NCBI GenBank assembly: GCA_016185545.1
Contig: JACPNJ010000005.1
Coordinates: 271,717-335,716 of the forward strand
Direction of reading: 5' to 3'
Length of the DNA: 64,000 nt
DNA from: Candidatus Yanofskybacteria bacterium
GTDB lineage: Bacteria; Patescibacteriota; Minisyncoccia; 2-02-FULL-40-12; IGHO2-01-FULL-4-A
The translations under genes and the position numbers were made by a program. Each line of letters starts with the position of its first letter. Within the stretch, counting starts at the first letter, position 1. The notes beneath the pieces are model-generated. The model saw only the letters and a program-made list of their open reading frames with translations, was not told the DNA's origin and did no database searches. Of this stretch, positions 18,750 through 63,377 are shown in pieces.

Positions 18750-18755
18750 TCGTTT

Positions 18756-18787: not shown

Positions 18788-18839
18788 CATTGATTATTAG
18801 TAGAACTTAACATAAGTTGAATGTTTGAGCAACTACTCA

Positions 18840-18868
18840 AGTATACTGCCAAGCAAACATAAAGTCAA
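18840..18868 (-). promoter_or_regulatory. Near-consensus sigma70 promoter (TTGACT-17-TATACT) reading toward arsR-like gene
   Basis: The reverse complement reads TTGACTTtatgtttgcttggcagTATACT. The same 30-nt motif recurs at 20838-20866. Confidence 0.45.
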
Positions 18869-18949
18869 GCAAAAGCAATGTAAAAGAGAAAACCGAACCA
18901 ATTTCTGTTGGAAAGCACGAGTTATTCGTGAGTTTGCGCTTGGGATTGA

Positions 18950-19314
18950 TTAAATAATAAGTGTTTCCCAGCCGCTTGCGATGCGCGCGCCGATATCCGG
19001 ATGGCCGTTGTTTTCATCCATAAAATTTGCTCCAAGCGCCTTGAGTTCGTCCTCTACTTTGAATGCCTTGGAGCAAAAAGAGCACACGCCTTTAACGACA
19101 CCGCCCTCAAGAAGTTCTTGGTAGAGTCCTTTGAAGTGATCGTTCTTGGGAAACTCCGCGGCCCACTGTGTGCCGCCACCGTCAAATATGAGCTCGACCT
19201 CCAGGCCTTTTGCTTTTGCCTGTTTGGCTTGGCGTAAAGGAGCGCGTGCAAAGCGCGACCCATATTTTCGTGCGTGCTTTTGTCCGCCAGCAAAATGATT
19301 AAAAGTTTTTTCAT
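18950..19314 (-). pseudogene. DsrE/DsrF-like family gene interrupted by a 1-nt frameshift
   Basis: The N-terminus MKKLLIILLADKSTHENMGRALHALLYAK runs in one frame. GLEVELIFDGGGTQWAAEF...VCSFCSKAF...GHPDIGARIASGWETLII continues in another frame after an A-rich run near 19195-19215. Confidence 0.5.
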
Positions 19315-19796: not shown

Positions 19797-19916
19797 CCCG
19801 TTAGAGACAGGTTGCGACTCTGTCGCAACCGTACCAAATTAATTTATAATTACTTCCCGTTTAAGTACAATAGCCACCGCTTTTTAGTTTTCGATACGCG
19901 CTATGTCTCTAACGGG
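19797..19916 (-). promoter_or_regulatory. CCCGTTAG terminal-inverted-repeat leader element abutting the arsR start codon
   Basis: cccgttagagaca (19797-19809) and tgtctctaacggg (19904-19916) flank an inner hairpin ggttgcgactctgtcgcaacc. Confidence 0.6.
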
Positions 19917-19927
19917 ATCCACTGGTA

Positions 19928-26291: not shown

Positions 26292-26597
26292 CTAGATTAA
26301 ATAATTTCGTAATTGCTTTTTTAGATAAGTACGGCCAGAACCACTTTTCAAAAACTTCTCTCGACCTACTGCATCACGTCTATCAAGATAGGCTTCAGCG
26401 TAAATAAGTTTCCATTCGCCACTCTTTATTCTTGTGGTACGACCGCCTTGTTTAATATTATGCTCCTCGATACGCCGTTTTAAGTTATCGGTTTGCCCGA
26501 TATACCAAGATTTATCATTTTGATTTTCTAAAAGGTAGACGGTAAACATAAAATTGGCCCCGAAAAGTTCACTTCGTTCACCTCGGGGCTCACTCAA
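26292..26597 (-). CDS. GIY-YIG nuclease family protein (UPF0213-like)
   Basis: FTVYLL...WYIGQTDNLKRRIEEHN GIY-YIG core. Confidence 0.7.
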   Translation of the reverse strand: MSEPRGERSELFGANFMFTVYLLENQNDKSWYIGQTDNLKRRIEEHNIKQGGRTTRIKSGEWKLIYAEAYLDRRDAVGREKFLKSGSGRTYLKKQLRNYLI

Positions 26598-26650
26598 AAT
26601 AACGTTCTCGGCTCGCCACGAGATGAGCGAGCCTGCGAGCGAATTTTTCG

Positions 26651-26724
26651 TGGCTGCCGGGCTTGGATTCGAACCAAGATGATGTGATTCAGAGTCACAT
26701 ATCCTACCGTTAGATGACCCGGCA
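26651..26724 (-). tRNA. tRNA-Gln (CUG)
   Basis: Cloverleaf: acceptor UGCCGGG/CCCGGCA, D AUCU/GGAU, anticodon stem UGUGA/UCACA with loop CUCUGAA, T CUUGG/CCAAG with UUCGAAU; CCA encoded. Confidence 0.7.
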
Positions 26725-26795
26725 AATTTACTTAACTTTATAACAAAAAAGACGTTTTTACAACGCCCTAATTATCAATTACCAGTTACTAATTA

Positions 26796-34946: not shown

Positions 34947-36764
34947 TTATTTTTTTAGCATTTCCAAAAATACCTTCTGTGGTATTTCCACTTTACCCCG
35001 CTCCTTCATTTTAGCTTTCCCGCGTTTTTGTTTTTCTAGCAACTTCTTTTTGCGGGTCACATCGCCGCCATACAGGTAACCCGTAACATCTTTGCGCAAA
35101 GCGGGTATGGTTTCTCGGGCAATGATTTTACCTCCGATAGCCGCCTGTAAAGATACCGCAAACCATTGCCGCGGCAATATCTTTTTCAATTTTTCAACAA
35201 TCCGCCTGCCTTCATGATATGTCCGCTCGCGCGGCACAATTTTGGAAAACGGCTCAACTTTTTCCTCGGCGACTAAAATATCCAGCCGTACCAAATCATA
35301 AACTTGATAACGAGCCGGCTCATAGCTCATGGAGGCGTAGCCGGAACTGACACTTTTGAGCCGGTCGTAAAAGTCTGTAATTATTTCTGACAATGGCACA
35401 AGGTACTTCAATATCGCCACCTCCTTGCTTAAATAATCGGTCGATCTATACTGGCTCCGCAATTCCGACAAAAGTTTCATTAATTGTCCCATGTACGATA
35501 CTGGGCTTAAAATTTCCAAATCAACCATCGGCTCTTCTATACTCTCTATTATGCCGGGGTCGGGTAGAGCGGCGGCTGAACGCACCTTTAGAACCTCACT
35601 TTTTTTTGTAGCAACATGATATTCCACAGATGGTGTGGAAACAATAAGAGCAAGGCCGAATTCACGACGCAAACGTTCGCTGACTATTTCAATATGCAAC
35701 ATGCCGAGAAATCCCAGACGAAAACCGCGCCCTAACGCCGGCGAAGATTCGGGTTCATAAACCAGCGAAGCATCGGTAAGCTTCAATTTGCCAAGTGCGT
35801 CTTTAAGTACGTCGTAATCATCGCTAGATTCAGGATAAAAACTGGCAAACACCATAGGTTTTGGCTCTTGATAACCGGATAGAGGTTTTAAAATTTCATT
35901 TTGAGATTTGAGATTTGAGATTTGAGATTTAAATATCGTATCGCCGACTCTAATTTGCCCGGGATCTTTTAGACCCGTAGCAATATAACCAATCTCACCG
36001 GCAGACAACATCGATTCCTTTTTAAGTTGCGGCGCAAAATAGCCGACTTCCACAACATCAGAAGTGGCCCTTGAGGCAAATAACTTAATTTTCTCTCCCG
36101 CTTTTATGGAACCGCCGAAAACTCTGACAAAAGCAATAACACCCTTATAAATATCAAAGGCTGAGTCAAAAATCAGAGCACGAAATGATGAGGGTTTAGG
36201 GTCTAGGGTATAGGGTATAGACGGCGTAATTTTGGCAATTACTGCTTCAAGAACTTGTTCCACTCCTTCGCCGGTTTTGGCGGAAATTTTTAAAATATCC
36301 TCGCGCGGCATGGTTAATAAATTTACCAGTTCTTCCTCCGCTTCGGCGACTCGCGCATTCGGCAAATCAATTTTGTTAATCACTGGAATAATTGCCAGCC
36401 CTTGTTTCTGCGCCAAATGTAAATTCGCCAGTGTCTGCGCCTGCACGCCCTTAGTCGCATCCACCAACAAAATCACTCCCTCAACAGCGGCAAGTGAACG
36501 GGAAACTTCATAAGAGAAATCCACATGACCCGGAGTATCAATAAGATTAAGCGTGTAACGGTTGGCATTTAGGGCGTAGGACATTCTAACAGGCTGGAGT
36601 TTAATGGTAATCCCCCGCTCGCGTTCCAGTTCCATCTGGTCTAAAAACTGCTCGTGCATCTTCCGTTTCTCAACCGTTCCAGTTAATTCCAAAAACCTGT
36701 CGGCTAAAGTTGACTTGCCGTGATCAATGTGGGCAACGATACAGAAATTGCGGATATTTTGCAT
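34947..36764 (-). CDS. lepA: Elongation factor 4
   Basis: AHIDHGKSTL G1 motif, DTPGH, NKID, LepA C-terminal domain. Contains in-frame tandem-heptamer stretches. Confidence 0.9.
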   Translation of the reverse strand: MQNIRNFCIVAHIDHGKSTLADRFLELTGTVEKRKMHEQFLDQMELERERGITIKLQPVRMSYALNANRYTLNLIDTPGHVDFSYEVSRSLAAVEGVILLVDATKGVQAQTLANLHLAQKQGLAIIPVINKIDLPNARVAEAEEELVNLLTMPREDILKISAKTGEGVEQVLEAVIAKITPSIPYTLDPKPSSFRALIFDSAFDIYKGVIAFVRVFGGSIKAGEKIKLFASRATSDVVEVGYFAPQLKKESMLSAGEIGYIATGLKDPGQIRVGDTIFKSQISNLKSQNEILKPLSGYQEPKPMVFASFYPESSDDYDVLKDALGKLKLTDASLVYEPESSPALGRGFRLGFLGMLHIEIVSERLRREFGLALIVSTPSVEYHVATKKSEVLKVRSAAALPDPGIIESIEEPMVDLEILSPVSYMGQLMKLLSELRSQYRSTDYLSKEVAILKYLVPLSEIITDFYDRLKSVSSGYASMSYEPARYQVYDLVRLDILVAEEKVEPFSKIVPRERTYHEGRRIVEKLKKILPRQWFAVSLQAAIGGKIIARETIPALRKDVTGYLYGGDVTRKKKLLEKQKRGKAKMKERGKVEIPQKVFLEMLKK

Positions 36765-36797
36765 AAACCACAAAACCTGCCTCTCGAAAGGCAGGTT

Positions 36798-41480: not shown

Positions 41481-41586
41481 CCCGTTAGAAGTGGCAATAG
41501 CGACATATAAACTAAACTTACAATCGCTGTTTTAACTTTTATTAAATAAAATTTGATTCGCGAACCCGTTAGGGCTACTTCTAACG
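41481..41586 (-). promoter_or_regulatory. CCCGTTAG leader element abutting the GT4 start codon
   Basis: cccgttagaagtggc at the ATG; distal aacccgttagggctacttctaacg. Confidence 0.6.
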
Positions 41587-41664
41587 AAATTCGTTGCTCA
41601 AAGCGTACCAAATTTATAAGCAAAAACAAAACCGGTTTACTGACTGACGAAATATTAATATTTA

Positions 41665-43086: not shown

Positions 43087-43121
43087 GCCACTAAAAATCG
43101 CGTGTTGCGCGATTTTTAGTG

Positions 43122-43670
43122 GCTTGGTAAATCTATAAGCCGAATTCTGTCACCCTTCGCTCGGCTATGCCGAGCTTCGGACGGACAAGTATTTGTGCTT
43201 GTCCTCCGTAGCTTTAGCGTAGGATGGATGATTATTTATCTGGGCCAATTATCGCTAATTAGCTCTAGCGTACGAACTTTTCGGGGTATCGCATTGCTGT
43301 GATACGACGCTGTACTTGCACTAGGCAGGGTTTAGCGCGACACCCATGTTGCCATGGGGCGTTCCCGTTCGGGAACTTTTCACCCGCAGTCCTCGGACTT
43401 GCGCCAAAGGAGCTCGGAATAGTTTCTGTGCCACTTTCCCTAAGCTTCGATTAGTAGCTCTTCTCTTAAGAGGAAGAAGTACCAACCTTATACTCGGTGG
43501 CCGTTAGCCACTGCCTTGCTGACGCAATCACTAATCACTAACCTCCAATCACCAATTTTGTTAGTAATTGACGACTAGCAGTTGGTGATTGCGTCAGCGG
43601 TGTTCGGACTTTCCTCTACCTTGCTCTTTCCAAAGAAAGGGCTGGGCAGAAATCACCCGATTTACCAAGC
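43122..43670 (-). ncRNA. rnpB: RNase P RNA (bacterial), unusually long (~550 nt)
   Basis: P1 pairing GCUUGGUAAAUC / GAUUUACCAAGC. P4 strands GAGGAAAGUCCGAACACC and ACAGAAUUCGGCUUA. GGGUGAAAAG J11/12-like segment. Long extra helix at 43500-43605. Confidence 0.7.
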
Positions 43671-46367: not shown

Positions 46368-46515
46368 CCCGTTAGAAGTAGCTGCTTGCCCCGCAATTCG
46401 CCAGAGGCGATGGTTCGGGGCTGCGCAGTTTTACACACAAGTTGCGGCCGCACAACAAGCTTAAGATTATTTACAAATTATATTTGCAAACCCGTTAGGG
46501 CTACTTCTAACGGGA
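46368..46515 (-). promoter_or_regulatory. CCCGTTAG leader element filling the tpiA-pgk spacer, abutting the pgk start codon
   Basis: cccgttagaagtagc at the ATG. Distal cccgttagggctacttctaacggga can pair either locally or with the ATG-proximal copy (15-bp perfect). Inner hairpin gccccg...cggggc. Confidence 0.6.
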
Positions 46516-46519
46516 TTAA

Positions 46520-47326: not shown

Positions 47327-47945
47327 GAGTAAGGTGGCGTTTCTTGAGGTGGCGATAAATATACCAAATTACAAGTGCCGCTAAAATTAACATGGCAGCT
47401 TTCTCAGCAATATCAAGGTAAGGTTTAATTACGGCAAAGTTTTCCCCGGTTTTTTCGCCTAGTAACAACAAAAAAAAATTATAAGGCAACATCCCCAAAA
47501 AACTATAGACAGCAAAATTTTTAAAATTTAATCTTGATATGCCGGCCGGAATGGCAATTATTGACCTGGCAAACGGCAGGAAACGCCCCCAAAAAACCAA
47601 TTTTGTACCATACTTGACGAACAATCTGTCCAAATGATCTAAATCGTGTTTATAAACTAAAAAATATCTGCCGTATTTTTCTAAAAATGGCCGGCCGCCT
47701 TTGGCAAAAATTAAATAAAGAATTGATTCGCCAATCAGGGAGCCGATATTTATAACTATATAAATGAGCCAGATAGGGAAAACACCGCGTCCGCTTAGGA
47801 AACCGTAAAGAGGCAATAACACCTCGGATGGAATTAAAGAAATACTGACCCTATCTAGAATGGATAATAAAAAAGCTCCACCATAACCCCATCGCTCTAA
47901 AAGTTCCAATGACTTGGCGCCGATTGTACCTATTAAAAAATTCAT
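47319..47945 (-). CDS. DedA/SNARE-associated family membrane protein
   Basis: Typical DedA G-x3-RF...P loop. Confidence 0.7.
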   Translation of the reverse strand: MNFLIGTIGAKSLELLERWGYGGAFLLSILDRVSISLIPSEVLLPLYGFLSGRGVFPIWLIYIVINIGSLIGESILYLIFAKGGRPFLEKYGRYFLVYKHDLDHLDRLFVKYGTKLVFWGRFLPFARSIIAIPAGISRLNFKNFAVYSFLGMLPYNFFLLLLGEKTGENFAVIKPYLDIAEKAAMLILAALVIWYIYRHLKKRHLTHE

Positions 47946-48970
47946 TCCGTAGGATTAACTTCAATTGGATCTGTTTCACGCAATAATTTAGCCGCTTCAT
48001 CCGGATCAATAATATTCACGTCAATCCCGCTGCCCAACTCAAAAGCCCCGAATGTGGAAATCTTGGGTAAAACTTCGACGTGCCAAGTATAAAAATCGTG
48101 TACGTCTATCACTGTGTCTTCAAGCGGAGCAGTATGTACGAAAAAATTATAATCAGGATTTTTGAGAGCTAGCTGTATTTTTTTAAGAATCAACAGTAAA
48201 ATTTCGCCAAGATACACAAGCTGCTCCTCTGGCATTTTCTCAAAATGGGCATGACTTTCCTGCGGAAAAATTCTCACTTCGTAAGACGTCTTGGAAACGA
48301 AAGGACAAAAAGCGATAAAATACTTGTTTTCATAGACAATCCTTTTTCTCTCTTTCCTTTCCCAGTCAATCATCACATTATATATTCTTTTTTTATATTC
48401 ACGATAAAATTTTTCAGAACCGTTAATACTTCTTTTAACATCGGGAGGCAAGACTGGAATTGATATAATCTGCGAATGGGGATGCGACATGCTGGCTCCG
48501 GCGCGAGAACCATGATTATGGAAAATTAAAGCGTATTTACCATATGCGCCGCCGTCAGTCATAGTTCGGTATCTTTCCTGATAAACCTTTAATGCTTCAG
48601 CCAACTCTTCTTTGGAAAACTCGTGCAAAAATCTGTCATGATTCCTGAATATGACAACTTCATGCCTGCCCTTGGCTTCTTGAACATTAAAGGGGCCGAT
48701 AGACTCCGGCAGACTGGCTTTGCCTTCCAAAACTGCCGGGTATTTATTCTTTACCACCTTTATTGCCCAATCATTACGTTCTTTATTTAAGTATTCAGCC
48801 ACCACAATATTGCCGTATTTTTCCGGGTTCTCAAAGGGGCACTTGCTCTTAGGCAATGTTTTAGTTTTCGGTTTTTCTTGTTTAACCTGTTCCGGCCTTT
48901 GGGCTCGGCCCGTAGCAAAAAGCACCCATTCGCCGGAAACCAGGTCTTCTCTAAACTCGTTAACCACCAC
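47942..48970 (-). CDS. Galactose-1-phosphate uridylyltransferase-like (GalT/HIT superfamily)
   Basis: HNHGSRAGASMSHPHSQI HxHxQ-type active site, two half-barrel halves. Confidence 0.6.
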   Translation of the reverse strand: MVVNEFREDLVSGEWVLFATGRAQRPEQVKQEKPKTKTLPKSKCPFENPEKYGNIVVAEYLNKERNDWAIKVVKNKYPAVLEGKASLPESIGPFNVQEAKGRHEVVIFRNHDRFLHEFSKEELAEALKVYQERYRTMTDGGAYGKYALIFHNHGSRAGASMSHPHSQIISIPVLPPDVKRSINGSEKFYREYKKRIYNVMIDWERKERKRIVYENKYFIAFCPFVSKTSYEVRIFPQESHAHFEKMPEEQLVYLGEILLLILKKIQLALKNPDYNFFVHTAPLEDTVIDVHDFYTWHVEVLPKISTFGAFELGSGIDVNIIDPDEAAKLLRETDPIEVNPTE

Positions 48971-49031
48971 TAGTCACTAGCCACTAGCCACTAGCCACTA
49001 GTAATTTAACTAGTCGCTAGGCACTAGTCCG
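48971..49031. repeat. Heptamer-arm spacer element (cactagc)n
   Basis: cactagtcactagccactagccactagccactag + taatttaa + ctagtcgctaggcactagtccgctaggcac. Confidence 0.85.
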
Positions 49032-49793
49032 CTAGGCACTATACTTGTAAGTCCACAGATTCCACCTTACCTGCAATACCTCAAACAGCATTTTAATCAT
49101 CCCGCTTAATTTGACCTTACTTTCCGTATCATTCACCCATCGTATCGGCGCTTCTTCTATTTTAAAACCCAGTTTGAGGGCAATCGCCAAAATCTCCACG
49201 TCAAACGCCCAACGGAAAATTGTCTGTTTTTGAAATACCGCCTCGGTGGCTTTGCGTGAAAAACATTTGAATCCTGCCTGTGAATCTTTCACGCCAAGCG
49301 GTACGAGAGTATGCACGATCAGACGAAAAATTCCACCGAGAAAATCTCTGATCCATGGCTGCTTAACCGCTATATCAGCCCCGGCAATTCTACGGGAACC
49401 AATCACAATATCAGATCCTTGTGAAAAATATGGAAGAAAATTCTCAATTTGATCAATGGTTGTAGAATTATCCGCGTCCATAAATAAGCGGTAATCCCCC
49501 TGCGCCTCCAACATTCCCCGCCGCACCGCCCAGCCCTTGCCGTGATTTTCTTTGTCATCAATTATTTTCAGATTTGGGATTTGCCCGGCCTTCGTAGCCG
49601 AAGCTGCTACTTCATCGGGGTAAGTGGATTTGAGATTTGAAACAACGCCAACGGTATTGTCCTTTGATCCGTCACTAACCACAATGATTTCATAATCATA
49701 AGATTGCCGTGACAAATACTCGTGCACGCTCAAAAGCGTCTTTTCAATGCGTTTTTCCTCATTATAGGCAGGAATTATTACAGAAATATACAT
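49032..49793 (-). CDS. Family 2 glycosyltransferase (dolichol-phosphate mannose synthase-like)
   Basis: VIIPAYNEE, IIVVSDGS, DADN motifs. In-frame insertion PDEVAASATKAGQIP. Confidence 0.8.
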   Translation of the reverse strand: MYISVIIPAYNEEKRIEKTLLSVHEYLSRQSYDYEIIVVSDGSKDNTVGVVSNLKSTYPDEVAASATKAGQIPNLKIIDDKENHGKGWAVRRGMLEAQGDYRLFMDADNSTTIDQIENFLPYFSQGSDIVIGSRRIAGADIAVKQPWIRDFLGGIFRLIVHTLVPLGVKDSQAGFKCFSRKATEAVFQKQTIFRWAFDVEILAIALKLGFKIEEAPIRWVNDTESKVKLSGMIKMLFEVLQVRWNLWTYKYSA

Positions 49794-50585: not shown

Positions 50586-50672
50586 CCATTCAGGTTATAG
50601 GTTATAGATTATAGGTTATAGCATTCTTCCATTATTTTTAACTATCACCTGTCACCTATTAGCTATCACCTC
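50586..50672. repeat. Heptamer-arm spacer element (ggttata)n ... (ctatcacc)n between map and adk
   Basis: caggttataggttatagattataggttatagc + loop + ctatcacctgtcacctattagctatcacc. Confidence 0.85.
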
Positions 50673-51341: not shown

Positions 51342-51413
51342 GCTACCTGAATTTTATCACAAAATTTTTAAAAACCAAAAACCGGCCTAACGCCGGTTTT
51401 TGTAATTTTAGAT

Positions 51414-52673: not shown

Positions 52674-52786
52674 TAAAATTTTAGCTTAAAATTCAAAACT
52701 CAAATTTCAAATTTTTATTGAAACTTAAAATCTAGATTTTAAAATGATTTGAGTTTTGAATTTTAGATTCCATTTAAAATTTGTGA
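52674..52786. repeat. AT-rich inverted-repeat spacer (aaattcaaaactcaaat ... atttgagttttgaattt); related copy at 57942-58064
   Basis: 18-bp near-perfect IR arms separated by ~40 nt. Confidence 0.85.
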
Positions 52787-53248: not shown

Positions 53249-53313
53249 TATTCAGGTTACAGGTTACAGGTTACAGGTTCAAAAAATTAAACCTAGCACC
53301 TGACACCTGACAC
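53249..53313. repeat. Heptamer-arm palindromic spacer element (caggtta)n ... (cctgaca)n, copy A
   Basis: (caggtta)3 + ttcaaaaaattaaacc + tagcacctgacacctgacacctag. Near-identical to 57614-57692. Confidence 0.9.
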
Positions 53314-53820
53314 CTAGTTTTTGAGCTTGCTCAACGCTCCTATCGTTGCTCTTGCTATATTTATCTTATTTCCGGTTCTTTTTATAAGCTTTGCGGAAAT
53401 ATTTTCAATACCAGAAAGTTTAGCCACTACACGTACCGCTCCTCCAGCCTTAACTCCGTTGCCAACTGGCGCGGGCTTAAGTAAAACCACCGCGCTGCCG
53501 TATTTATATTCAATTATGTGTGGTATTGTGCCGTTTTTTATCGGCACTGTGACCATGTTTTTACGTGCTTGATGTGTCGCTTTTTGCATTGACTGAGCCA
53601 CGTCATGACCTTGAGCAACTCCAACTCCTACCCTGCCCTTACCATCACCTATAGCAATAGTGGCACGGAAACTGAATCGCTTGCCACCCTTGGTTACACG
53701 AGTTACCCTAGCAATATCCAAAACTTTGGAATCAAATTCCGATTTTTCTTTGGGTGTCCCCCGATCTCTGCCGAAGCCTCTTCTGCCTCCGGTTTTTTTA
53801 TTATTTTTTTGTTCCTCCAT
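53314..53820 (-). CDS. rpsE: 30S ribosomal protein S5
   Basis: S5 dsRBD plus C-terminal domain. Confidence 0.9.
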   Translation of the reverse strand: MEEQKNNKKTGGRRGFGRDRGTPKEKSEFDSKVLDIARVTRVTKGGKRFSFRATIAIGDGKGRVGVGVAQGHDVAQSMQKATHQARKNMVTVPIKNGTIPHIIEYKYGSAVVLLKPAPVGNGVKAGGAVRVVAKLSGIENISAKLIKRTGNKINIARATIGALSKLKN

Positions 53821-54026
53821 GCCAGTTTGTCCAAACGCAGCGTTAACGAGTATTGGCTAACAAACTGCGCACCCCGCTCTTTCTAATCACTAATCGAGAT
53901 AAATAAAGTAGAAACTTTACCGATAGGCATTTATTACTTAATCTCGAATATCAATCAGAAAGAGCGGGGTTAAGTATTTTTTACTATGCTCGGCTCGCAA
54001 TAGCTCGCCTGCGCGTGGAAAAATAC
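53821..54026. repeat. GC-capped long inverted repeat spacer (accccgctctttc ... gaaagagcggggt) with the atgctcggctcgc...ctcgcctgcgcgtgga tail
   Basis: IR arms ~30 nt; tail motif shared with 55139-55170. Confidence 0.85.
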
Positions 54027-54398
54027 TTAAAATTTTAGTCCTCCCCTTCTTAATCCTTCCGCCAATGCTCTTATTCTCCCGTGATATTTGTAGCCCCCCC
54101 TATCAAATACGACCTTGCTTATCCTCATGTCTTTGGCTTTTTTTGCCAACGTTTCTCCGATTAAATCAGCTCTTGCGGTTTTACTTTCTTTTTTTATTTT
54201 AGTTCCGCTTTTCATACTATTTTTTACTTTCAGGATATCACTGGCACTTATCAGTGTTTTTCCGGTCGCATCATCAATTATCTGAACAAAAACGTGACGA
54301 CTACTGCGAAAAACCGAAACTCGCGGAGTCTCTTTTGTTCCACGCACTTTTGCCCTAACACGGTTATGTCTTTTTTCTCTGTGTTGCTTTTTATTCAT
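54027..54398 (-). CDS. rplR: 50S ribosomal protein L18
   Basis: L18 family; C-terminal RIRALAEG. Confidence 0.9.
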   Translation of the reverse strand: MNKKQHREKRHNRVRAKVRGTKETPRVSVFRSSRHVFVQIIDDATGKTLISASDILKVKNSMKSGTKIKKESKTARADLIGETLAKKAKDMRISKVVFDRGGYKYHGRIRALAEGLRRGGLKF

Positions 54399-54470
54399 GC
54401 TAAAGTTTCTAGTTTCTAGTTTTTAGTTTCTAGTGAATTTTACTAGCAACTAGAACCTAGAACCTAGCAA
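54399..54470. repeat. Heptamer-arm spacer element (tagtttc)4 ... (ctagaac)n
   Basis: Tandem 7-mers followed by an imperfectly complementary tandem arm; loop gtgaatttta. Confidence 0.9.
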
Positions 54471-55025
54471 CTATCCTGCCGTTGCTACCGCCTTCTTGCC
54501 CGCCTTTCTTAAAATAACTTCGTTCTTGTATTTAATGCCGGAACCCTTATACGGTTCCGGCGGTTTAGCCGCCCTTATTAAAGCCGCGACATGACCGACT
54601 TTTTCTTTATCCGGTCCAGTTACTTTTATAACATTTTTCTCCACCCGGAAAGTCACTCCTTCAGGCGCTTTTACCGAAACTGGATTGGTATAACCCAGAC
54701 TTAATTCAATGGAATCTTCCTTTACTTGAGCCTTGAAACCCACTCCATTAAACTCCAGTACCTTTTCAAAACCGCCAAAAACACCCTTTATCATTGTTGC
54801 CGCCAGCGCCCTGCCCAATCCCCAAAATTTAGAAGTTTCTTTGCTGGCATCAATGCCTTGTTTTAATCCAATAACAACGGCACCATCTTCCACTCTGGCA
54901 ATTAAAACATCCGGAAGAATTTTTTCCAGTTCGCCCTTGGGACCCTTGGCGTGAATTTTTTGACCGTCAATTTCCACTTCCACACCATCCGGAATTTTGA
55001 TTAGTTTTTTACCTATTCTAGACAT
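54471..55025 (-). CDS. rplF: 50S ribosomal protein L6
   Basis: MSRIGKKLIKIP; two L6 repeats. Confidence 0.9.
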   Translation of the reverse strand: MSRIGKKLIKIPDGVEVEIDGQKIHAKGPKGELEKILPDVLIARVEDGAVVIGLKQGIDASKETSKFWGLGRALAATMIKGVFGGFEKVLEFNGVGFKAQVKEDSIELSLGYTNPVSVKAPEGVTFRVEKNVIKVTGPDKEKVGHVAALIRAAKPPEPYKGSGIKYKNEVILRKAGKKAVATAG

Positions 55026-55179
55026 GCAAATTTGTCCAATCGGACAAGCGTAATCGCGTAGTCCGATTGGGTAACAGATTTAGCACCCCGCCCTCTAAGC
55101 ACTTTAATAGCTTAGAGGGCGGGGTAACTAACTGTTACCATGCTCGGCTCGCTTTGCTCGCCTGCGCGTGGACAGCTAT
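55026..55179. repeat. GC-rich multi-hairpin spacer element, copy 1 (paralog at 59432-59583)
   Basis: ccaatcggac..gtccgattgg; accccgccctctaagc...gcttagagggcggggt; ggtaactaactgttacc; atgctcggctcgc tail. Confidence 0.9.
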
Positions 55180-55578
55180 TTACCAAACCTCAAAAAGCAC
55201 CTCTCCTCCCAGTTCGGCTTTCCTTGCATCTTCGCCCGCCATTATCCCCTTGGATGTTGAAATCACAGAAATACCATAACCATTTTTCACGGGTTTTAAA
55301 TCTTTTTTACCGGCATACATTCTTCGCGATGGTTTTGAAACCAACTTAATTCCCTTGATTGCGCCTACACCGTTATCATATTTTAATTCAATTGCCAGCA
55401 TATTAAATTCGGATTTTTTGGTTTTTATTTTTCTCTTGTCAACACCGGCGATAAATCCTTTGGTTTTTAAAATTCCGGCAATTTCAAATTTAATTTTTGA
55501 AAAAGGTGAAACTATCTCGCTTTTACCGCGAGCCTGCGCATTTTTTATTTGGGTCAGCATGTTTGCGATTGGACTCAA
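55180..55578 (-). CDS. rpsH: 30S ribosomal protein S8
   Basis: DPIADMLTQIKNA-like N-terminus. Confidence 0.9.
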   Translation of the reverse strand: MSPIANMLTQIKNAQARGKSEIVSPFSKIKFEIAGILKTKGFIAGVDKRKIKTKKSEFNMLAIELKYDNGVGAIKGIKLVSKPSRRMYAGKKDLKPVKNGYGISVISTSKGIMAGEDARKAELGGEVLFEVW

Positions 55579-55687
55579 GTTAGTTTATCAAGTTTATAAA
55601 GTTTTAAAGTTTACAAAGTTAGATTCTGAATAACTTTACAAACTTTATGAACTTTATGAACTTTATGAACTTTTTACTGGTCGTGGT
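55579..55687. repeat. Heptamer-arm spacer element (aagttta)n ... (gaacttt(at))n
   Basis: caagtttataaagttttaaagtttacaaagtt ... aactttacaaactttatgaactttatgaactttatgaacttt. Confidence 0.9.
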
Positions 55688-55873
55688 TTACCACGAACTT
55701 TTATGTATTCCGGGCAGTAATCCTTGGCTAGCCAGCTCTCTGAAATGCACCCGGCACAAACCGAATTTCCTGATATAGCCGTGCTTGCGCCCGCACATAA
55801 AACAGCGGTTTACGATTCTGCTTGAAAACTTGGGCTTCTTATTTGATCTTGCGATTGTGGATTTTTTCGGCAT
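55688..55873 (-). CDS. rpsN: 30S ribosomal protein S14 (Zn-type)
   Basis: 61-aa form with CxxC...C..H; start set to MPKKST. Confidence 0.8.
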
Positions 55874-55946
55874 GCCAATTTTCTCAACGAGGCAAGCGTA
55901 TGCTCGCGACGCCGAGTTGTTAGAAAGCTTGAGCACCCCGCTGCAT

Positions 55947-56534
55947 TTAAAGGTTCCGCTTAATTGGAAACCCCGTCAATCTCAATAACTCCACGCCTTC
56001 TTCCTTAGATTTAGCCGTCGTTACCACTGTAACTTCCAAAGGAAATATGTCCTTCAGCGATTCATATGTAACTTCCGGAAAAATCGTCTGTTCTTTGATA
56101 CCGATGTTAATATTTCCGTGCTGGTCAAACACCTTCTGTTCCAAACCATGGAAATCCCGCGAACGCGGCAAAGCTATTGAAATTAACCTATCTATAAAAT
56201 CATACATTCGCCTTCCGCGCAAGGTCACCACCATTCCAACATCCAGTCCTTGGCGCACCTTAAAACCGGAAATTGATTGTTTCGCTTTGCGCATCGCGGC
56301 TTTTTGGCCGGTTATTTTAGCCAAGTCCTGCTCAATTTTTTCAATTGCTTTTGTCTCCTTGGCCACCGCCTTGCGCCCATAGCCGACATTAACCACGACT
56401 TTCTCAATCTTCGGCACCGCCATCACATTCTTGTAACCGAACTTAGCCTTCATCAAGGGTAGTACTTCTTTACGATACTTTTCTAATAATCTAGGTTGTT
56501 GTGTTTTCATTTTCATAAAAGGATCCCGCCCCAT
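55947..56534 (-). CDS. rplE: 50S ribosomal protein L5
   Basis: L5 family; true start probably a few codons downstream (MKMKTQQ). Confidence 0.9.
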
Positions 56535-56756
56535 CCGGGGTCATGGCTTCCTTGGCAATTTGGTTTTAACAAAACTCGCCTTCGGCTTTGATTTTATTTT
56601 GTCTAAAACTCTGCTACCAGAAGGGGCGGGATTGCGCTTGTTACCAGTGCTCGCCTCGCCATGCTCGGCTCCGCCCTGACAAGCTTACCTCTTTTCGGTA
56701 TTTAGTTAGTAATCTTGGTGTATTTAACATAATTAAATACTAGCAAAGCTAGTTTG
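56535..56756. repeat. GC-rich hairpin spacer (cccgcccc...ggggcggg) with atgctcggctc motif
   Basis: ggatcccgccccatccggggtc...gaaggggcgggattgcg; ccatgctcggctccgccc. Confidence 0.8.
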
Positions 56757-57062
56757 CTAGTTTTCTGATCCACATTTTTTGCATATTCTCTCTTTATTAT
56801 CTCCAACAATCTTATGCCCCACTCTTGTCGGCTTCCCGCAACTCTTGCATACTAACATAACTTTTGACGCATCCACCGCCCGCTCTTTATGAATTATCTG
56901 CCCCTTCTGCCCTTGCTTTCTGGCCCGCAAATGCCTGGCAACGGTATTCAATTTTTCAACCACAATTTTACCTTCGCGCGGAAAAACAAACAAAACCTTA
57001 CCCGTCTTGCCCCGGTCTTTACCGTTCAACATCACCACGTTGTCGCCTTTTTTGATGTTCAT
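56757..57062 (-). CDS. rplX: 50S ribosomal protein L24 with C-terminal CxxC...CxxC zinc-ribbon extension
   Basis: KOW motif IKKGDNVVMLNGKDRGKTGKV; C-terminus CKSCGK...CKKCG. Confidence 0.85.
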   Translation of the reverse strand: MNIKKGDNVVMLNGKDRGKTGKVLFVFPREGKIVVEKLNTVARHLRARKQGQKGQIIHKERAVDASKVMLVCKSCGKPTRVGHKIVGDNKERICKKCGSEN

Positions 57063-57241
57063 TTCTTATAAATTAAGTTTGAACTTTGTAAATTTTTCTT
57101 TTCTGGGCGAGCAGGAACAAATATTATCAAATTTCTGAAGTTTTTCGCTGATGGGAATCCACTATTGGAGCACATCTAGAAAAACGAGAAAATTTGATAA
57201 ATATTTGTAAGCGAGAACAAACAAAGAAAAATTTACAAAGT
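57063..57241. repeat. Nested perfect inverted repeats in the rplX-rplN spacer
   Basis: gtttgaactttgtaaattttt ... aaaaatttacaaagttcaaac (21 bp) enclosing atattatcaaatttc ... gaaaatttgataaatat. Confidence 0.85.
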
Positions 57242-57613
57242 TCAAACGATCTCTTGCGCCAAACTTGCAATGGTGTCAAATCCTCTTTCTTTTATTTCTC
57301 TGGGTATCGGCCCGAAAATTCTGCCGCCCTTAGGTTCCTTGCTAGTACCCTCTAATATCACTACTGCATTATCGTCAAATCTGACATAACTTCCATCTTT
57401 TCTTCTGAAATTATTCCTCTGGCGGACAATCACGGCCCTGAGTACATCTTTCTTTTTGACTTGTTTGCGCGGTTCGGTTTCTTTGACGGATATTACGATA
57501 ATATCGCCAAGCTGGCCGTATCTATGCCTCGTTCCGCCCAAAACCTGAATCACGCCAACCTTTTTGGCTCCACTATTATCAGCAACATTTAAAATTGAAC
57601 GCAGTTGAATCAC
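57242..57613 (-). CDS. rplN: 50S ribosomal protein L14
   Basis: MIQ..S.L.VADNSGAK. Confidence 0.9.
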   Translation of the reverse strand: MIQLRSILNVADNSGAKKVGVIQVLGGTRHRYGQLGDIIVISVKETEPRKQVKKKDVLRAVIVRQRNNFRRKDGSYVRFDDNAVVILEGTSKEPKGGRIFGPIPREIKERGFDTIASLAQEIV

Positions 57614-57692
57614 TTAATCAGGTTACAGGTTACAGGTTACAGGTTACAGGTTAAAAAATTAAACCTAGCACCTGACACCCGAAACCTGACAC
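57614..57692. repeat. Heptamer-arm palindromic spacer element, copy B
   Basis: (caggtta)4 + taaaaaattaaacc + tagcacctgacacccgaaacctgacacc. Confidence 0.9.
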
Positions 57693-57941
57693 CTATACTT
57701 TTCCTATGATTTGCCATCTCTTGTCTTTCGACATCGGCTTTGTTTCCCGAATAACAACTTTATCCCCAATATGATACTCCCCCTTCTCATCATGCGCCTT
57801 AAATCGTTTGGTAATTTTGTAATATTTCTTGTATTTTGGGTGCTTCTTTAATCTTATAACCGAAACCACCACAGTTTTGGTCATTTTGTCCGACACTACG
57901 ATTCCCTTTAATTGTCTTATCTTTTTGATCAATTGTTTCAT
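57693..57941 (-). CDS. rpsQ: 30S ribosomal protein S17
   Basis: S17 OB fold; GIVVSDKMTKT. Confidence 0.9.
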   Translation of the reverse strand: MKQLIKKIRQLKGIVVSDKMTKTVVVSVIRLKKHPKYKKYYKITKRFKAHDEKGEYHIGDKVVIRETKPMSKDKRWQIIGKV

Positions 57942-58064
57942 GGCTTATTAAATTCAAAACTCAAATTTTAAATTTTAATTGAAATTTCGAATTCAAAATA
58001 TAAAATAACATTTTAATTTTAAGTTTGCGGTTTCATTTGATTTTTTGAATTTTGTAATTTGAAT
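57942..58064. repeat. Second copy of the aaattcaaaactcaaat spacer family
   Basis: ttaaattcaaaactcaaatttt ... ttgattttttgaattttgtaatttgaat. Confidence 0.8.
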
Positions 58065-58274
58065 CTATTTATTTTTGGGTTTCGCGATTCGTGCTTCAAT
58101 CTTAATTGCTGTTAAAATTCTCGCTATGTCTTTTTTGGTTTTTTTAATTTGGCTCACATCTTTCACTGACTTATTTGCCAGCTCAAATCTCAATTTCCCC
58201 AGCTTAATCTGCAACTCCTTAAGCATTTCGTTTAATTCAACTTGGGATTTAGATTGTATATCGCTAAATTTCAT
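58065..58274 (-). CDS. rpmC: 50S ribosomal protein L29
   Basis: 69 aa coiled-coil; ELNEMLKELQ. Confidence 0.85.
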   Translation of the reverse strand: MKFSDIQSKSQVELNEMLKELQIKLGKLRFELANKSVKDVSQIKKTKKDIARILTAIKIEARIAKPKNK

Positions 58275-58303
58275 AAGCTGTAAAGCTATGGATCCGGAAA
58301 GTT

Positions 58304-58711
58304 TTATAGCTTTTTAATAAATCTGGTCTTAATCGGCAATTTGTGCGCCGCCAATCTTAATGCCTCCATAGCCGTTTTTTCGGTAACGCCATCCATCTCA
58401 AATAATATCCTGCCCGCTTCAACCGGTGCCACAAAATGAGATAACGATCCGGCACCACCGCCCATTCCGACTTCCGCGCCCTTTTGCGTCCGTGGTTTAT
58501 CGGGGAACACTCTTATCCATATCTTGCCACCGCGCTGAATGAAGTGGGTAATTGCTCGCCGTGCCGCTTCCAGCTGATTGGCCTTAAGCCAGCTTGATTC
58601 CATTGCCTTAAGACCGTAACTGCCAAAGCTCAAATAATACCCGCGCGTTGTGGTTTTTTTCAACGTTCCCTTGTGAACCTTGCGGTGTTTTATGCGTTTG
58701 GGCTGTAGCAA
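58304..58711 (-). CDS. rplP: 50S ribosomal protein L16
   Basis: MLQPKRIKHRK. Confidence 0.9.
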   Translation of the reverse strand: MLQPKRIKHRKVHKGTLKKTTTRGYYLSFGSYGLKAMESSWLKANQLEAARRAITHFIQRGGKIWIRVFPDKPRTQKGAEVGMGGGAGSLSHFVAPVEAGRILFEMDGVTEKTAMEALRLAAHKLPIKTRFIKKL

Positions 58712-58798
58712 ACTAGCTGATAGCTGATAGCTGATAGCTGATAGCTTTTTGAAGTCAAGCTATAACCCATCACCTAAAAACTATAACCTTTGCGATTG
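58712..58798. repeat. Heptamer-arm spacer element (tagctga)4 ...
   Basis: ctagctgatagctgatagctgatagctgatagc + loop + gctataacc...ctataacc. Confidence 0.85.
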
Positions 58799-59431
58799 TT
58801 AAAATCGCAAACCTTTATATATCCATACCTTAATTCCTACCGTTCCGTATGTCGTGTATGCGGTTGATTTTGCAAAATCTATGTCCGCCCTCAGTGTCTG
58901 CAACGGCAAGCTTCCTTGTTCAAGATGCTCCGTTCTCGCTATGTCATTGCCGTCCAGCCGTCCACCAACTGTAACTTTAGCGCCTTTTACATCACGGTTG
59001 GATATGATTTTAGCAAGTGATTGCTTTAACACGCGACGGTAAGGTAATCTTTTTTCTATCTGCTCAGCCATTTGTTCAGCAACTATTCTGGCTGAAGTTT
59101 CCGGATTTTTAAACTCCTGTATATCCAACCGAATCGCTGTTTTTCTCTTAATAAGTTTGATAACTTCGGCTTTTAAATCTTCGATGCCCGTACCGCCGCG
59201 GCCTATAATCAAACCCGGCCTTGCGGTGCGTATGGTAATGGCTAGAACATCCGGACTTCTTTCAATCTCTATATCATCTACACTCATGTTTTTGAGTTTT
59301 TTATCTAGAAATTTTCTGATTTCAACATCTTCTTTTAAAAATTCCGGATAATTTCTAACCTTAAACCAGCGGGATTTCCAATCCTTGTTTATCGAAACTC
59401 TTAATGATGTTGGGGAAATTTTCTGTCCCAT
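58799..59431 (-). CDS. rpsC: 30S ribosomal protein S3
   Basis: MGQKISPTSLR; KH domain. Confidence 0.9.
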   Translation of the reverse strand: MGQKISPTSLRVSINKDWKSRWFKVRNYPEFLKEDVEIRKFLDKKLKNMSVDDIEIERSPDVLAITIRTARPGLIIGRGGTGIEDLKAEVIKLIKRKTAIRLDIQEFKNPETSARIVAEQMAEQIEKRLPYRRVLKQSLAKIISNRDVKGAKVTVGGRLDGNDIARTEHLEQGSLPLQTLRADIDFAKSTAYTTYGTVGIKVWIYKGLRF

Positions 59432-59583
59432 GCAAATTTGTCCAATCGGACAAGCGTAATCGCGTAGTCCGATTGGGTAACAGATTTAGCACCCCGCCCT
59501 CTATGCACTTTAATAGCTTAGAGGGCGGGGTAACTAACTGTTACCGTACTCGTTCGCGTTGCTCACTGCGCTCGGACATTTAA
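59432..59583. repeat. GC-rich multi-hairpin spacer element, copy 2
   Basis: ~110 nt nearly identical to 55026-55135 (caaatttgtccaatcggacaagcgtaatcgcgtagtccgattgggtaacagatttagcaccccgccctct...). Confidence 0.9.
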
Positions 59584-60102
59584 TTAGATGGCTTTTCTTC
59601 TAAAAAACTTTTTTATCTTGCCTACCTGTCCGAATATTCCTCCCTTTTTGCCTAGTTCTTTTTTGATTTCCGGTTTTGATTTAGTTGGCATATTAACTTC
59701 TTTTGTTGTTTCGGTTATTTCTGCCGTTTCGGATTTTGGTATTATTTGTGATTTGGCTTTCAGACCGGGTACTTTTTCCTCCAACACAATCTTGATATGC
59801 GATGTCTTTTTCTCTATTGGTGAAGCCATGCCAAATCCTTTTGGCCTAAACCTTTTTAGTTTGGACCCTTCATTGACTATCACATCCTTAATAAACATAT
59901 TTTCCTTAACAAGGCCAAAACCATTATGCGCGTTAGCCATGGCCGAATCAAGCAATTTAGAAATAGGTTTGCTGGATTTTTTTATGATATAATCCAACTG
60001 GAACTTAGCCGAAATCGCGTCCATGCCCTTAATTGCACGCGCCACCAACCTAACCTTGCGCGGCGATATTCTTAGATTGTTTAATTGGGCTGTTATCTGC
60101 AC
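59584..60102 (-). CDS. rplV: 50S ribosomal protein L22 with C-terminal extension
   Basis: L22 core ARAIKGMD... plus a ~50-aa K/E-rich tail. Confidence 0.85.
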   Translation of the reverse strand: MQITAQLNNLRISPRKVRLVARAIKGMDAISAKFQLDYIIKKSSKPISKLLDSAMANAHNGFGLVKENMFIKDVIVNEGSKLKRFRPKGFGMASPIEKKTSHIKIVLEEKVPGLKAKSQIIPKSETAEITETTKEVNMPTKSKPEIKKELGKKGGIFGQVGKIKKFFRRKAI

Positions 60103-60173
60103 TTATTCAGGTTACAGGTTACAGGTTACAGGTTACAGTTTTTAACTGTCCACTGATCACTGGAAACTGGTCA
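60103..60173. repeat. Heptamer-arm spacer element sharing the (caggtta)3 left arm with a different right arm
   Basis: caggttacaggttacaggttacagtttttaactgtccactgatcactggaaactggtcac. Confidence 0.85.
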
Positions 60174-61850: not shown

Positions 61851-61923
61851 GGTCAGTTTCTAGTTTACAGCTTACAGTTTACAGTGAATTCTTAACTGAA
61901 AACTGACAACTGTAAACTGAAAA
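61851..61923. repeat. Heptamer-arm spacer element (tttacag)n ... (ctgNaaa)n
   Basis: gtttctagtttacagcttacagtttacagtgaattcttaactgaaaactgacaactgtaaactgaaaac. Confidence 0.9.
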
Positions 61924-63207: not shown

Positions 63208-63377
63208 TGTAACAAAAAACCGGACTTAGCCGGCACATTTAAAATACCAACTAAATCAAAAGGATAGCTTAGGTTTTATTAAAAATTAAAACCATTTATT
63301 ATATTATTCTGTTGCTCTCACAGAGATAAGAGTAACAAAGATGGCTGTACAAATTTTGCACAGTCATCTTTGTTTCC

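Follow-up and report, generated by a model that had tools for sequence, protein, structure and literature searches.

Near-identical hairpin-forming spacers recur at non-adjacent junctions of the S10/spc ribosomal-protein operon in a Candidatus Yanofskybacteria bacterium

Results

The stretch of DNA analyzed here, referred to as the window, comprises 64,000 nucleotides from a Candidatus Yanofskybacteria bacterium (GenBank assembly GCA_016185545.1, contig JACPNJ010000005.1, positions 271,717 to 335,716), has 42% G+C, and holds nearly all of its genes on the minus strand. The S10/spc ribosomal-protein (r-protein) operon lies at 49.8-63.7 kb in canonical gene order, and this study concerns the repeated, hairpin-forming spacers found between the stop codon of one of its genes and the start codon of the next. 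Twenty genes were confirmed with Pfam (L23, L2, S19, L22, S3, L16, L29, S17, L14, L24, L5, S14, S8, L6, L18, S5, L15, SecY, Adk, and Map), and the gene names given in a preliminary description of the window proved correct; the identities of S10, L3, and L4 were taken from their position and from gene calls in relatives rather than from Pfam. L15 directly follows S5 with no L30 gene between them, an arrangement that is typical of bacteria belonging to the candidate phyla radiation (CPR). CPR/Patescibacteria genomes are regarded as streamlined. From S10 to Map, 19 of the 22 junctions in the window measure at least 60 nt, with a total of 2271 nt, compared with 10 of 22 and 1597 nt in the related assembly GCA_016181175. 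About 2.3 kb of the 14-kb core operon is repeat-element DNA, which turns over faster than the surrounding genes. At least 16 junction elements lie between 48.9 and 62 kb, more than the preliminary description had listed.

The elements fall into four classes: periodic hairpins, GC-clamped composite modules, AT-rich hairpins, and one 179-nt palindromic element. Inverted repeats occur in all of them. The arms of a periodic hairpin consist of tandem 7-nt units (9-nt units in one case) with about one mismatch or small internal loop per unit, and the hairpin is an inverted repeat over its whole length. Such hairpins lie at 48971, 50586, 53249, 54399, 55579, 57614, 58712, 60103, and 61851. When read in the mRNA sense, the start-proximal arm is usually a perfect array and the stop-proximal arm is degenerate. 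Tandem Repeats Finder (TRF) reported period-7 arrays on both arms at 50592/50642, 53253/53297, 54404/54442, 57619/57669, and 61854/61894, and on one arm only at 58714 and 60108. The GC-clamped modules each combine a CCCCGC...GCGGGG-type stem with a tail of direct GCGAGC repeats, and their inverted repeats have arms of 16-33 nt. The spacers that had been described as duplicated are as follows (z compares the fold with shuffles; I numbers denote inverted repeats).

53249..53313, minus strand: periodic hairpin, CAGGTTA copy 1, S5 to L15; TRF array (CAGGTTA)3.9, 100%; -27.9 kcal/mol, z = -5.8
57614..57692, minus strand: periodic hairpin, CAGGTTA copy 2, S17 to L14; TRF array (CAGGTTA)5.0, 100%; -32.6 kcal/mol, z = -4.9
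60103..60173, minus strand: chimeric CAGGTTA copy 3, S19 to L22; start-proximal (CAGGTTA)4.4 arm and AAUAA, with an unrelated (CCAGUnn)n arm; z = -0.9
55026..55179, minus strand: GC-rich composite module B, S8 to L6; -82.5 kcal/mol, z = -9.4; inverted repeat I16
59432..59583, minus strand: GC-rich composite module D (copy of B), L22 to S3; -72 kcal/mol, z = -8.1
53821..54026, minus strand: GC-clamped module A, L18 to S5; -77.5 kcal/mol, z = -7.3; inverted repeat I1
56535..56756, minus strand: GC-clamped module C, L24 to L5; outer stem AUCCCGCCCC...GGGGCGGGAU; rearranged GCGAGC/GCCGAGC tail; loose relative of A, B, and D
52674..52786, minus strand: AT-rich long hairpin, L15 to SecY; 19-bp perfect arms (I10); z = -3.8; 76% identical to 57943-58038
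57942..58064, minus strand: AT-rich spacer, L29 to S17; related to 52674-52786; weak fold, z = -1.4

The preliminary description had claimed that near-identical spacers occur at different r-protein junctions, and this was borne out: all of the duplicates are present at or near the positions it gave, far beyond chance. CAGGTTA copies 1 and 2 are 95% identical over 61 nt (blastn E = 4.5e-21), with copy 1 matching 57626-57685 in copy 2. In the mRNA, copy 1 reads 5' (GGUGUCA)n, loop, (UAACCUG)4, AAUA, AUG. The CAGGTTA copies also have loop and flank sequences in common (AAAAAATTAAACC, AAUAA). The third copy does carry a new right arm, as had been noted; only its (CAGGTTA)n arm and AAUAA are common to copies 1 and 2, the other arm being unrelated, and its matches to them span 39 nt at 95% and 31 nt at 100%. 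The GC-rich pair, modules B and D, is 93% identical over 149 nt (blastn E = 4.5e-58), or 98% over 124 nt by repeat search. This identity is unevenly distributed, with a single difference in the 115 nt that adjoin the start codon downstream (~99%) and a tail beside the upstream stop codon that is ~70% identical. Module B is built from a tail (UCCACGCGCAGGCGAGC-AAA-GCGAGCCGAGCAUGG), a 16-bp CCCCGCCCUCUAAGC hairpin inside a GGUAACAG stem, and a CAAUCGGAC hairpin; module A holds the B-type tail motif in a stem of its own together with a CCCCGCUC...GAGCGGGG hairpin with 33-nt arms.

Two further claims of duplication stand in part. A GC hairpin with a recurring tail had been placed at both modules A and C; 53821-54026 does resemble 55116-55172 (83% over 59 nt, E = 4.5e-9), but 56535-56756 is only a looser relative, carrying GCGAGC/GCCGAGC motifs in an order that differs from modules A and B, and as a whole spacer it is no more stable than shuffles (z = -0.9). 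The two AT-rich spacers, described as copies of one another, are related (76% over 96 nt, E = 4e-12) but not near-identical.

The remaining junction elements are the following.

57063..57241, minus strand: 179-nt palindromic element, L14 to L24; inverted repeat I2, 100% complementary; z = -6.7
54399..54470, minus strand: periodic hairpin (CTAGTTT)n/(CTAGAAC)n, L6 to L18; TRF; inverted repeats I8 and I9; z = -3.4
55579..55687, minus strand: periodic hairpin with 9-nt units (AACTTTATG)n, S14 to S8; TRF; inverted repeat I3; z = -5.0
58712..58798, minus strand: periodic hairpin with a (TAGCTGA)4.7 arm, S3 to L16; TRF 100%; z = -4.2
61851..61923, minus strand: periodic hairpin (CAGTTTA)n/(AACTGAA)n, L4 to L23; TRF; -26.6 kcal/mol, z = -8.2
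50586..50672, minus strand: periodic hairpin (AGGTTAT)n/(CTATCAC)n, adk to map; TRF and fold
48971..49031, minus strand: periodic hairpin, (CTAGTGG)n family, between genes 49032-49793 and 47942-48970; TRF; z = -4.9

The 179-nt element has a 25-bp perfect outer stem (57077-57101 / 57223-57247) that takes in the last 6 nt of rplN. Periodic hairpins are denser in the operon (9 of 22 junctions) than elsewhere in the window (3 of 52; p = 5e-4), by a manual count from the TRF and fold outputs.

Folding was more stable than that of shuffles in 7 of the 9 spacers tested (z = -3.4 to -9.4), the exceptions being 60103-60173 and 57942-58064. The hairpins fill nearly the whole gap between genes, beginning 0-16 nt past the stop codon and finishing 0-20 nt before the next start; they are followed by AAUA(A) and the start codon, and the T-run of a terminator is absent. 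Promoter-like sites in the region show no excess (27 versus 28.2 expected) and terminator-like sites lie above expectation (27 versus 16.1). Among the matches listed, no terminator-like site falls on a periodic hairpin or on the four GC modules; the consensus scan flags 51376-51402 and 63223-63257. Rfam searches at gathering thresholds and with E up to 5 returned no family and no r-protein leader RNA at the spacers, only microRNA/sRNA-family matches far below gathering scores. Since the elements lie within an unbroken run of same-strand genes, they should be co-transcribed with the operon. A Shine-Dalgarno-like 4-mer (GGAG, GAGG, or AGGA) is present at -18..-4 of 2 of the 60 window genes, below the 8.7% background, and the organism appears to work without Shine-Dalgarno-led initiation, so that insertion into a junction would destroy no ribosome-binding site.

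The L6 protein of the window is 100% identical to one from an NCBI MAG (metagenome-assembled genome) of Candidatus Yanofskybacteria. Relatives were found through homologues of L6, and the operon or part of it was obtained from seven other assemblies, with the following L6 identities to the window.

L001: GCA_016181055, 84%
L002: ENA contig, 86%
L003: ENA contig, 72%
L004: GCA_001794195, 72%
L005: GCA_016181175, 69%
L204: Logan contig, 89%
L205: Logan contig, 88%

L003 does not differ from L004 in its L6 protein or gene layout, so only L004 was analyzed. Junction lengths in the window, L001, L002, L004, and L005 form a mosaic of presence and absence, as three junctions illustrate.

L14-L24: window 179 nt; L001 2 nt; L002 449 nt; L004 166 nt; L005 169 nt
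L15-SecY: window 113 nt; L001 -1 nt (genes overlap); L002 87 nt; L004 16 nt; L005 3 nt
L2-S19: window 2 nt; L001 and L002 not covered; L004 389 nt; L005 4 nt

Five unrelated families occupy the S8-L6 junction of the window, L001, L002, L204, and L205, and that junction is empty in L004 and L005. The L6-L18 junction, occupied by the 54399-54470 hairpin in the window, is empty in L001, L005, and L205. Because junctions are empty in relatives, the elements must have been gained or lost outright and not merely homogenized. Each genome also has a dominant family of its own in near-identical copies: three CAGGTTA hairpins in the window, two identical (CTACTTT)4 hairpins at adjacent junctions in L001, and five copies of the GTGCGTAA family within 5.4 kb in L002.

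Elements are also shared between junctions that are not orthologous. The 152-nt core of the window element at 57063-57241 (L14 to L24) is 89.5% identical to the S19 to L22 junction of L004, and 48971-49031 is 88.5% identical over 61 nt to the S5 to L15 junction of L002. The r-protein genes themselves are 72.5% identical to those of the window in L004 (maximum 78%) and 76.8% in L002 (maximum 85%) at the nucleotide level. The 179-nt element and its L004 homologue have the core in common and differ in their outer stems, each of which is perfectly self-complementary. Pairing is kept between copies by co-variation, as the preliminary description had proposed to check: where the window has (CAGGUGU)n/(AACCUGU)n, the cousin hairpin of L004 has (UAGGUGU)n/(AAACCUA)n, with the compensatory change present in every unit.

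Two other repeats were encountered in these comparisons. About 48 nt (GCCCTCCTACGCTAAAGCTTCGGAAGGGCACTTCTTCGCTCCAGAAGAA) are identical in L001 3866-3919 (L18-S5) and L004 7899-7950 (S17-L14), which are different junctions, and the RNase P RNA of the window contains part of this stretch (CCTACGCTAAAGCT) close to its 3' end. A second, intergenic inverted-repeat family has the long-range termini CCCGTTAGA(AGT)...(ACT)TCTAACGGG (CCCGTACGA in L005) enclosing variable hairpins. Several Yanofskybacteria genomes carry it both within the r-protein operon and beyond: at 46368-46519, 41481-41664, 19797-19927, and 18750-19053 in the window; at 3037-3160, 7441-7629, 10920-11050, and 16925-16997 in L005; and at about 1715-1830 in L004. 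The GC modules have CCCG-type termini in common with this family.

In L002, a PF05635 gene stands between L14 and L24, exactly bracketed by arms of the GTGCGTAA family, and the same family also forms four hairpins without an open reading frame (ORF) on that contig. The encoded protein matches the TIGR02436 'four helix bundle protein' (E = 3.5e-34), resembles Xanthomonas XCC0516 (PDB 2GSC), and falls below the cut-off for the retroelement factor Avd; the TIGR02436/PF05635 protein is a four-helix-bundle relative of Avd. A jackhmmer search over the fetched loci found two more PF05635 genes, in a Bacteroidales and a Microgenomates MAG, both with complementary periodic arms. As a separate observation, a reverse transcriptase gene (RVT_1) adjoins a bAvd gene in L003/L004 (19503-20555), ~6 kb downstream of the r-protein operon in GCA_001794195, in what looks like a diversity-generating retroelement.

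CAGGTTA arrays are mostly not adjacent to PF05635 genes, and the link was then tested from the gene side. Among 80 metagenomic PF05635 loci, 72 had enough flanking sequence, and bracketing was defined as a local alignment score of at least 28. Complementary arms bracket 50 of the 72 PF05635 genes (69%) and 2 of 61 neighboring genes longer than 145 amino acids (aa) (Fisher p = 1e-16), and both of those neighbors adjoin a PF05635 gene. Shuffled controls are exceeded by z > 5 at 55 of the 72 loci. Among the 50 bracketed loci, 34 have a best arm period of 7 and 12 one of 8. On viral contigs (IMG/VR, L229-L236), 6 of 8 PF05635 loci have bracketing complementary heptamer arrays that reach the score of 28, and the other 2 have weaker complementary arms. 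Further copies of the same arms, including ORF-less hairpins, occur within 3 kb in 5 of 43 metagenomic PF05635 loci. Arms of the window itself (TAGCTGA, CAGGTTA, and the 9-mer) have matches among the arms beside PF05635 genes of unrelated metagenomes; the 55579-55687 arm matches sequence that flanks a PF05635 gene on its 3' side in locus L044, and the 58712-58798 arm matches PF05635-flanking arms in loci L127, L135, L142, L149, and L179. In one open-access library, we found no paper on a link between PF05635 and heptamers, which is not proof of novelty, and a literature search on MITEs (miniature inverted-repeat transposable elements) of CPR bacteria found nothing relevant.

When one genome of each bacterial species was scanned for CAGGTTACAGGTTACAGGTT, at least 117 loci were found, and CAGGTTA arrays are thus present in at least 117 species of Acidobacteriota, Chloroflexota, Bacteroidota, Cyanobacteria, Gemmatimonadota, Patescibacteria, Rickettsiales, Omnitrophota, and others. 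Whole hairpins of the window type, in which a loop separates a degenerate G-rich arm from a perfect (AACCTGT)n arm, were found in MAGs of Rickettsiales, Alphaproteobacteria, and Omnitrophota. (CAGGTTA)n arrays also occur on 23 viral contigs (IMG/VR). We considered whether a G-rich arm on the 5' side indicates the polarity of transcription and rejected this because the palindrome 5'-CAGGT...ACCTG-3' is identical on both strands, so that the asymmetries of 26:4 and 37:10 describe the palindrome and not gene orientation.

Periodic sequence is present elsewhere in the window as well. The RNase P RNA gene (43120-43668, minus strand) measures 549 nt against the 367 nt of the Rfam model and has a 137-nt insertion near model position 91, the base of which is a (TAGTGAT)-type periodic hairpin (CTGACGCAATCACCA...TAGTGATTAGTGATTGCGTCAG). 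A second insertion of ~60 nt near its 3' end holds the hairpin GCTCGGCATAGCCGAGC. The lepA gene (34947-36773, minus strand) contains the in-frame heptamer arrays (TTTGAGA)4.4 (100%) and (AGGGTAT)4.3 (91%) at 35900-35930 and 36191-36220, which correspond to the linkers that follow the G domain (about aa 184-194) and domain 2 (about aa 281-291). An ORF of 101 aa with a GIY-YIG domain adjoins tRNA-Gln (26292-26795, minus strand), and the spacer beside it contains a (CTAATTA)4.6 array and a GCGAGC/GCCGAGC motif that resembles the tail of the GC modules. Finally, five direct repeats of ~51 nt with a spacing of 81-84 nt extend over 5223-5943, from the 3' part of ORF 5091-5540 into the spacer 5541-5947, and probably represent a repeat-containing protein without a Pfam match.

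Discussion

The elements in the junctions of this operon are gained, lost, and replaced quickly, each genome has a dominant family of its own, and members of one family are found at non-orthologous positions in different genomes. The presence/absence mosaic, the sharing at identities above those of the genes, and the bursts of copies in single genomes support mobility or templated copying, and this part of the preliminary description holds; its further comparison with MITEs or REP (repetitive extragenic palindromic) sequences is useful only as an analogy. We consider it probable that the spacers comprise several families of small repeats, hairpin-forming and non-autonomous, that have settled in the stop-to-start junctions of r-protein genes, the periodic ones being ORF-less elements akin to intervening sequences. 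The L002 family and the survey statistics strongly support the inference that the periodic hairpins are ORF-less derivatives of TIGR02436 gene cassettes. Such a derivation would be comparable to that of a MITE from a full transposon or of an ORF-less rRNA intervening sequence from an ORF-bearing one.

It is possible that the elements spread at the DNA level, by copy-and-paste or by templated repair that uses the palindrome (template switching or gene conversion). A palindrome-templated process is favored over cut-and-paste because target-site duplications are lacking, partial tracts extend from the side of the downstream gene, and outer stems differ yet are perfect. In the mRNA, the long imperfect stem may loop the insertion out and bring the stop and start codons together, and such adjacency could plausibly serve re-initiation. 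By analogy with rRNA intervening sequences, the stems are also plausible substrates of RNase III.

Several observations weigh against this interpretation. No target-site duplication, which the preliminary description had proposed to look for, was found at the borders when filled and empty junctions were compared across five genomes, nor was a defined target motif. No enzyme for movement was identified in the window: Pfam found no transposase, reverse transcriptase, or RAYT in the 60 ORFs scanned of the 75 called (the remaining 15 being mostly short), and jackhmmer found no PF05635 gene among ORFs of at least 50 aa. Within the window, all copies of the named duplicated modules are confined to the operon and span no more than 7 kb, a pattern that also fits local gene conversion, which may therefore contribute. 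The tail motif GCGAGC-N-GCGAGCCGAGC was found only in the window by a fuzzy search of loci L001-L205, with GC-rich noise elsewhere. The derivation from TIGR02436 cassettes is weakened by the CAGGTTA arrays, most of which are solitary and far from PF05635: among the 117 listed loci, a complementary arm lies within 400 nt in 29 (25%) and a PF05635 gene within 8 kb in 2. Tandem heptamers could arise by slippage, unconnected with PF05635. No link to PF05635 is seen for the GC-rich modules, the AT-rich hairpins, or the 179-nt element, and these families may move by other means. Lastly, co-transcription, RNase III cleavage, and effects on translation are presumed from sequence and analogy.

The alternative that retains most weight, although we regard it as unlikely, is local concerted evolution, in which old resident spacer hairpins have been homogenized by gene conversion or short templated repair without any mobile family. 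The clustering of the named copies within 7 kb of the window agrees with it, as do the partial tracts (one arm only at 60103-60173; a 99% core and ~70% tail in modules B and D), the lack of target-site duplications and of a transposase among the scanned window ORFs, and the fact that each genome has a homogenized family of its own. Homogenization, however, does not produce junctions that are truly empty in relatives, such as the 2-nt L14-L24 junction and the overlapping L15 and SecY genes of L001. Nor does it account for one family at non-orthologous junctions with an identity above that of the r-protein genes, for a family member at 48971-49031 outside the r-protein genes, or for the same design in distant phyla and on viral contigs.

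A second alternative, which we hold to be quite improbable, is that the hairpins are selected cis-acting RNA signals (RNase III sites, 3'-end stabilizers, or stems that join stop and start codons for re-initiation) and that their likeness is due to selection. Hairpins that reach almost exactly from stop to start, compensatory change that keeps pairing between the window and L004, the lack of Shine-Dalgarno use, and enrichment in the most highly expressed operon would all be expected of such signals, and RNase III cuts rRNA intervening sequences of the same design (PMC4990558). Against this, the junctions are dispensable, with gaps of 0-30 nt at the same sites in close relatives, no family is kept at a given junction, and the 60103 and 57942 spacers fold no better than shuffles. 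These objections apply to selection only as the sole cause of the duplication; a function and selfish spread are compatible.

Replication slippage, in which each junction grew its own heptamer microsatellite, complementary arms arose by selection or chance, and similar units are convergent, appears very improbable. An excess of heptamers in bacterial intergenic DNA is known and slippage has been proposed for it (PMC4692102). The array on one of the arms is usually perfect and hence young, perfect in-frame heptamer arrays exist inside lepA, and CAGGTTA arrays elsewhere are mostly solitary. But slippage gives no account of the identity outside the arrays (the loop and flank AAAAAATTAAACC and AAUAA of the CAGGTTA copies), of the non-periodic families (modules B and D over 149 nt; the 179-nt element at 89.5% across genomes), or of the bracketing of PF05635 genes (50/72 versus 2/61), and the alignments already suggest common descent of copies at different junctions. 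An assembly artefact is scarcely credible: the source is a MAG, in which chimeric joins or collapsed repeats may occur since short repeats can mislead assemblers, but the S10/spc order is canonical with intact ORFs flanking every spacer, the same kind of spacer occurs in independent NCBI, ENA, and Logan assemblies, and elements of 65-180 nt do not exceed, or are close to, read length.

Among known systems, the nearest are the intervening sequences of 23S rRNA in Leptospira and Coxiella, which have a stem of complementary termini, may carry an S23p/PF05635 ORF, are excised by RNase III, and have been called selfish (PMC4990558). The elements described here resemble them in the long stem of complementary termini with a PF05635/TIGR02436 ORF in the loop or none, in a host unit that is very highly transcribed, and in their sporadic distribution. 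The L002 element has the layout of an intervening sequence inside an r-protein operon, and the RNase P RNA of the window also has a periodic hairpin insertion. Rfam found no rRNA gene in the window. In contrast to the 23S elements, those of the window lie in mRNA junctions and not in helix 25 or 45 of 23S rRNA, and their arms consist of tandem 7-9-nt units with regular mismatches, which are not mentioned in that account (PMC4990558); unlike the ORF-bearing intervening sequences, the window copies have no PF05635 ORF.

Heptameric repeats are over-represented in bacterial intergenic DNA, the cause being unexplained and slippage having been proposed, and Xanthomonas has 70-75 convergent pairs of GGGAATC arrays that have been read as G-quadruplex formers (PMC4692102). 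Like the repeats of Xanthomonas (GGGAATC), Nostoc (GGGGA(T/C)T), and Calothrix, the arrays described here are intergenic tandem heptamers, often in convergent stem-loop arrangements, which are transcribed with their neighbors, vary in length among close relatives, and have no known function or origin (PMC4692102). The units of the window (CAGGTTA, CTAGTTT, TAGCTGA, and CAGTTTA) contain no GGG run and thus no G-quadruplex tract, unlike those of Xanthomonas; moreover, 83% of the Xanthomonas sites keep their position between two species, in contrast to the rapid turnover seen here, and the paper makes no link to PF05635 (PMC4692102).

The known MITEs of operons, such as the Correia elements of Neisseria and the ERIC and RU elements of enterobacteria, are likewise small, non-autonomous inverted repeats that form stem-loops in mRNA and are polymorphic among strains (PMC3184786, PMC2229807). 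Terminal inverted repeats and insertion polymorphism between related genomes, both MITE features, were seen here. The named families number 2-3 copies each, all in the operon of the 64-kb window, and the only ORF-bearing relative that was found carries a PF05635 gene and not a known transposase. The tandem heptanucleotide repeats of Calothrix are named STRR sequences, and the stems of Correia elements are substrates of RNase III. The present elements differ from MITEs in that no target-site duplication was found, no terminal sequence is common to all copies, and they have no known parent transposon; in addition, certain copies are incomplete, and outer stems vary between genomes. REP and REPIN sequences are similar in being multicopy, extragenic, imperfect palindromes that are genome-specific and lack target-site duplications. 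REP units measure 20-40 nt, carry a tetranucleotide that is conserved at the 5' end, and rely on a RAYT gene present in single copy. Here, the elements measure 65-220 nt, the arms are arrays of up to 5 units without a conserved tetranucleotide, and neither a RAYT nor a Y1 transposase was found among the Pfam-scanned ORFs of the window. Strict membership of the MITE or REP families is unsupported, given the lack of both target-site duplications and a transposase among the scanned ORFs of the 64 kb.

In the early mRNA of phage T7, hairpins between cistrons are processed by RNase III and are fixed functional signals. The analogy is functional only, in that imperfect stems with internal loops stand between co-transcribed genes and could give separately stable mRNAs; there is no sequence relationship, and the present families are variable. 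Unlike autoregulatory r-protein leaders, the spacers do not keep their content between relatives. What we describe may be regarded as variants of co-transcribed palindromic repeats, heptamer inverted pairs, and intervening sequences, and the association with TIGR02436 is possibly new and general.

A broader proposal is more speculative, and we advance it tentatively, as a whole that we think may well prove wrong. Hairpins with arms of 7-8-nt units, with or without a PF05635 ORF, could constitute one cross-phylum class of mobile 'intervening-sequence' elements whose insertion sites are strongly transcribed DNA (helices of rRNA, the RNase P RNA, and junctions within operons), with the four-helix-bundle protein acting as their mobility or maintenance factor. 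Such a class would explain the excess of heptamers in bacterial intergenic DNA, and CPR bacteria without Shine-Dalgarno sequences would tolerate ORF-less copies between cistrons, the stem looping them out.

Because its spacers turn over faster than its genes, the operon is a sensitive marker for the history of strains. It also offers a natural experiment on the tolerance of polycistronic translation for large structured inserts in the absence of Shine-Dalgarno sequences. For TIGR02436/PF05635 proteins, whose function is unknown, the only annotations are 'four helix bundle protein' and '23S rRNA intervening-sequence protein', and the position of most PF05635 genes within heptamer-array inverted repeats provides a testable idea of the target of this protein. 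The same link suggests a source for the over-represented heptamers of bacterial intergenic DNA.

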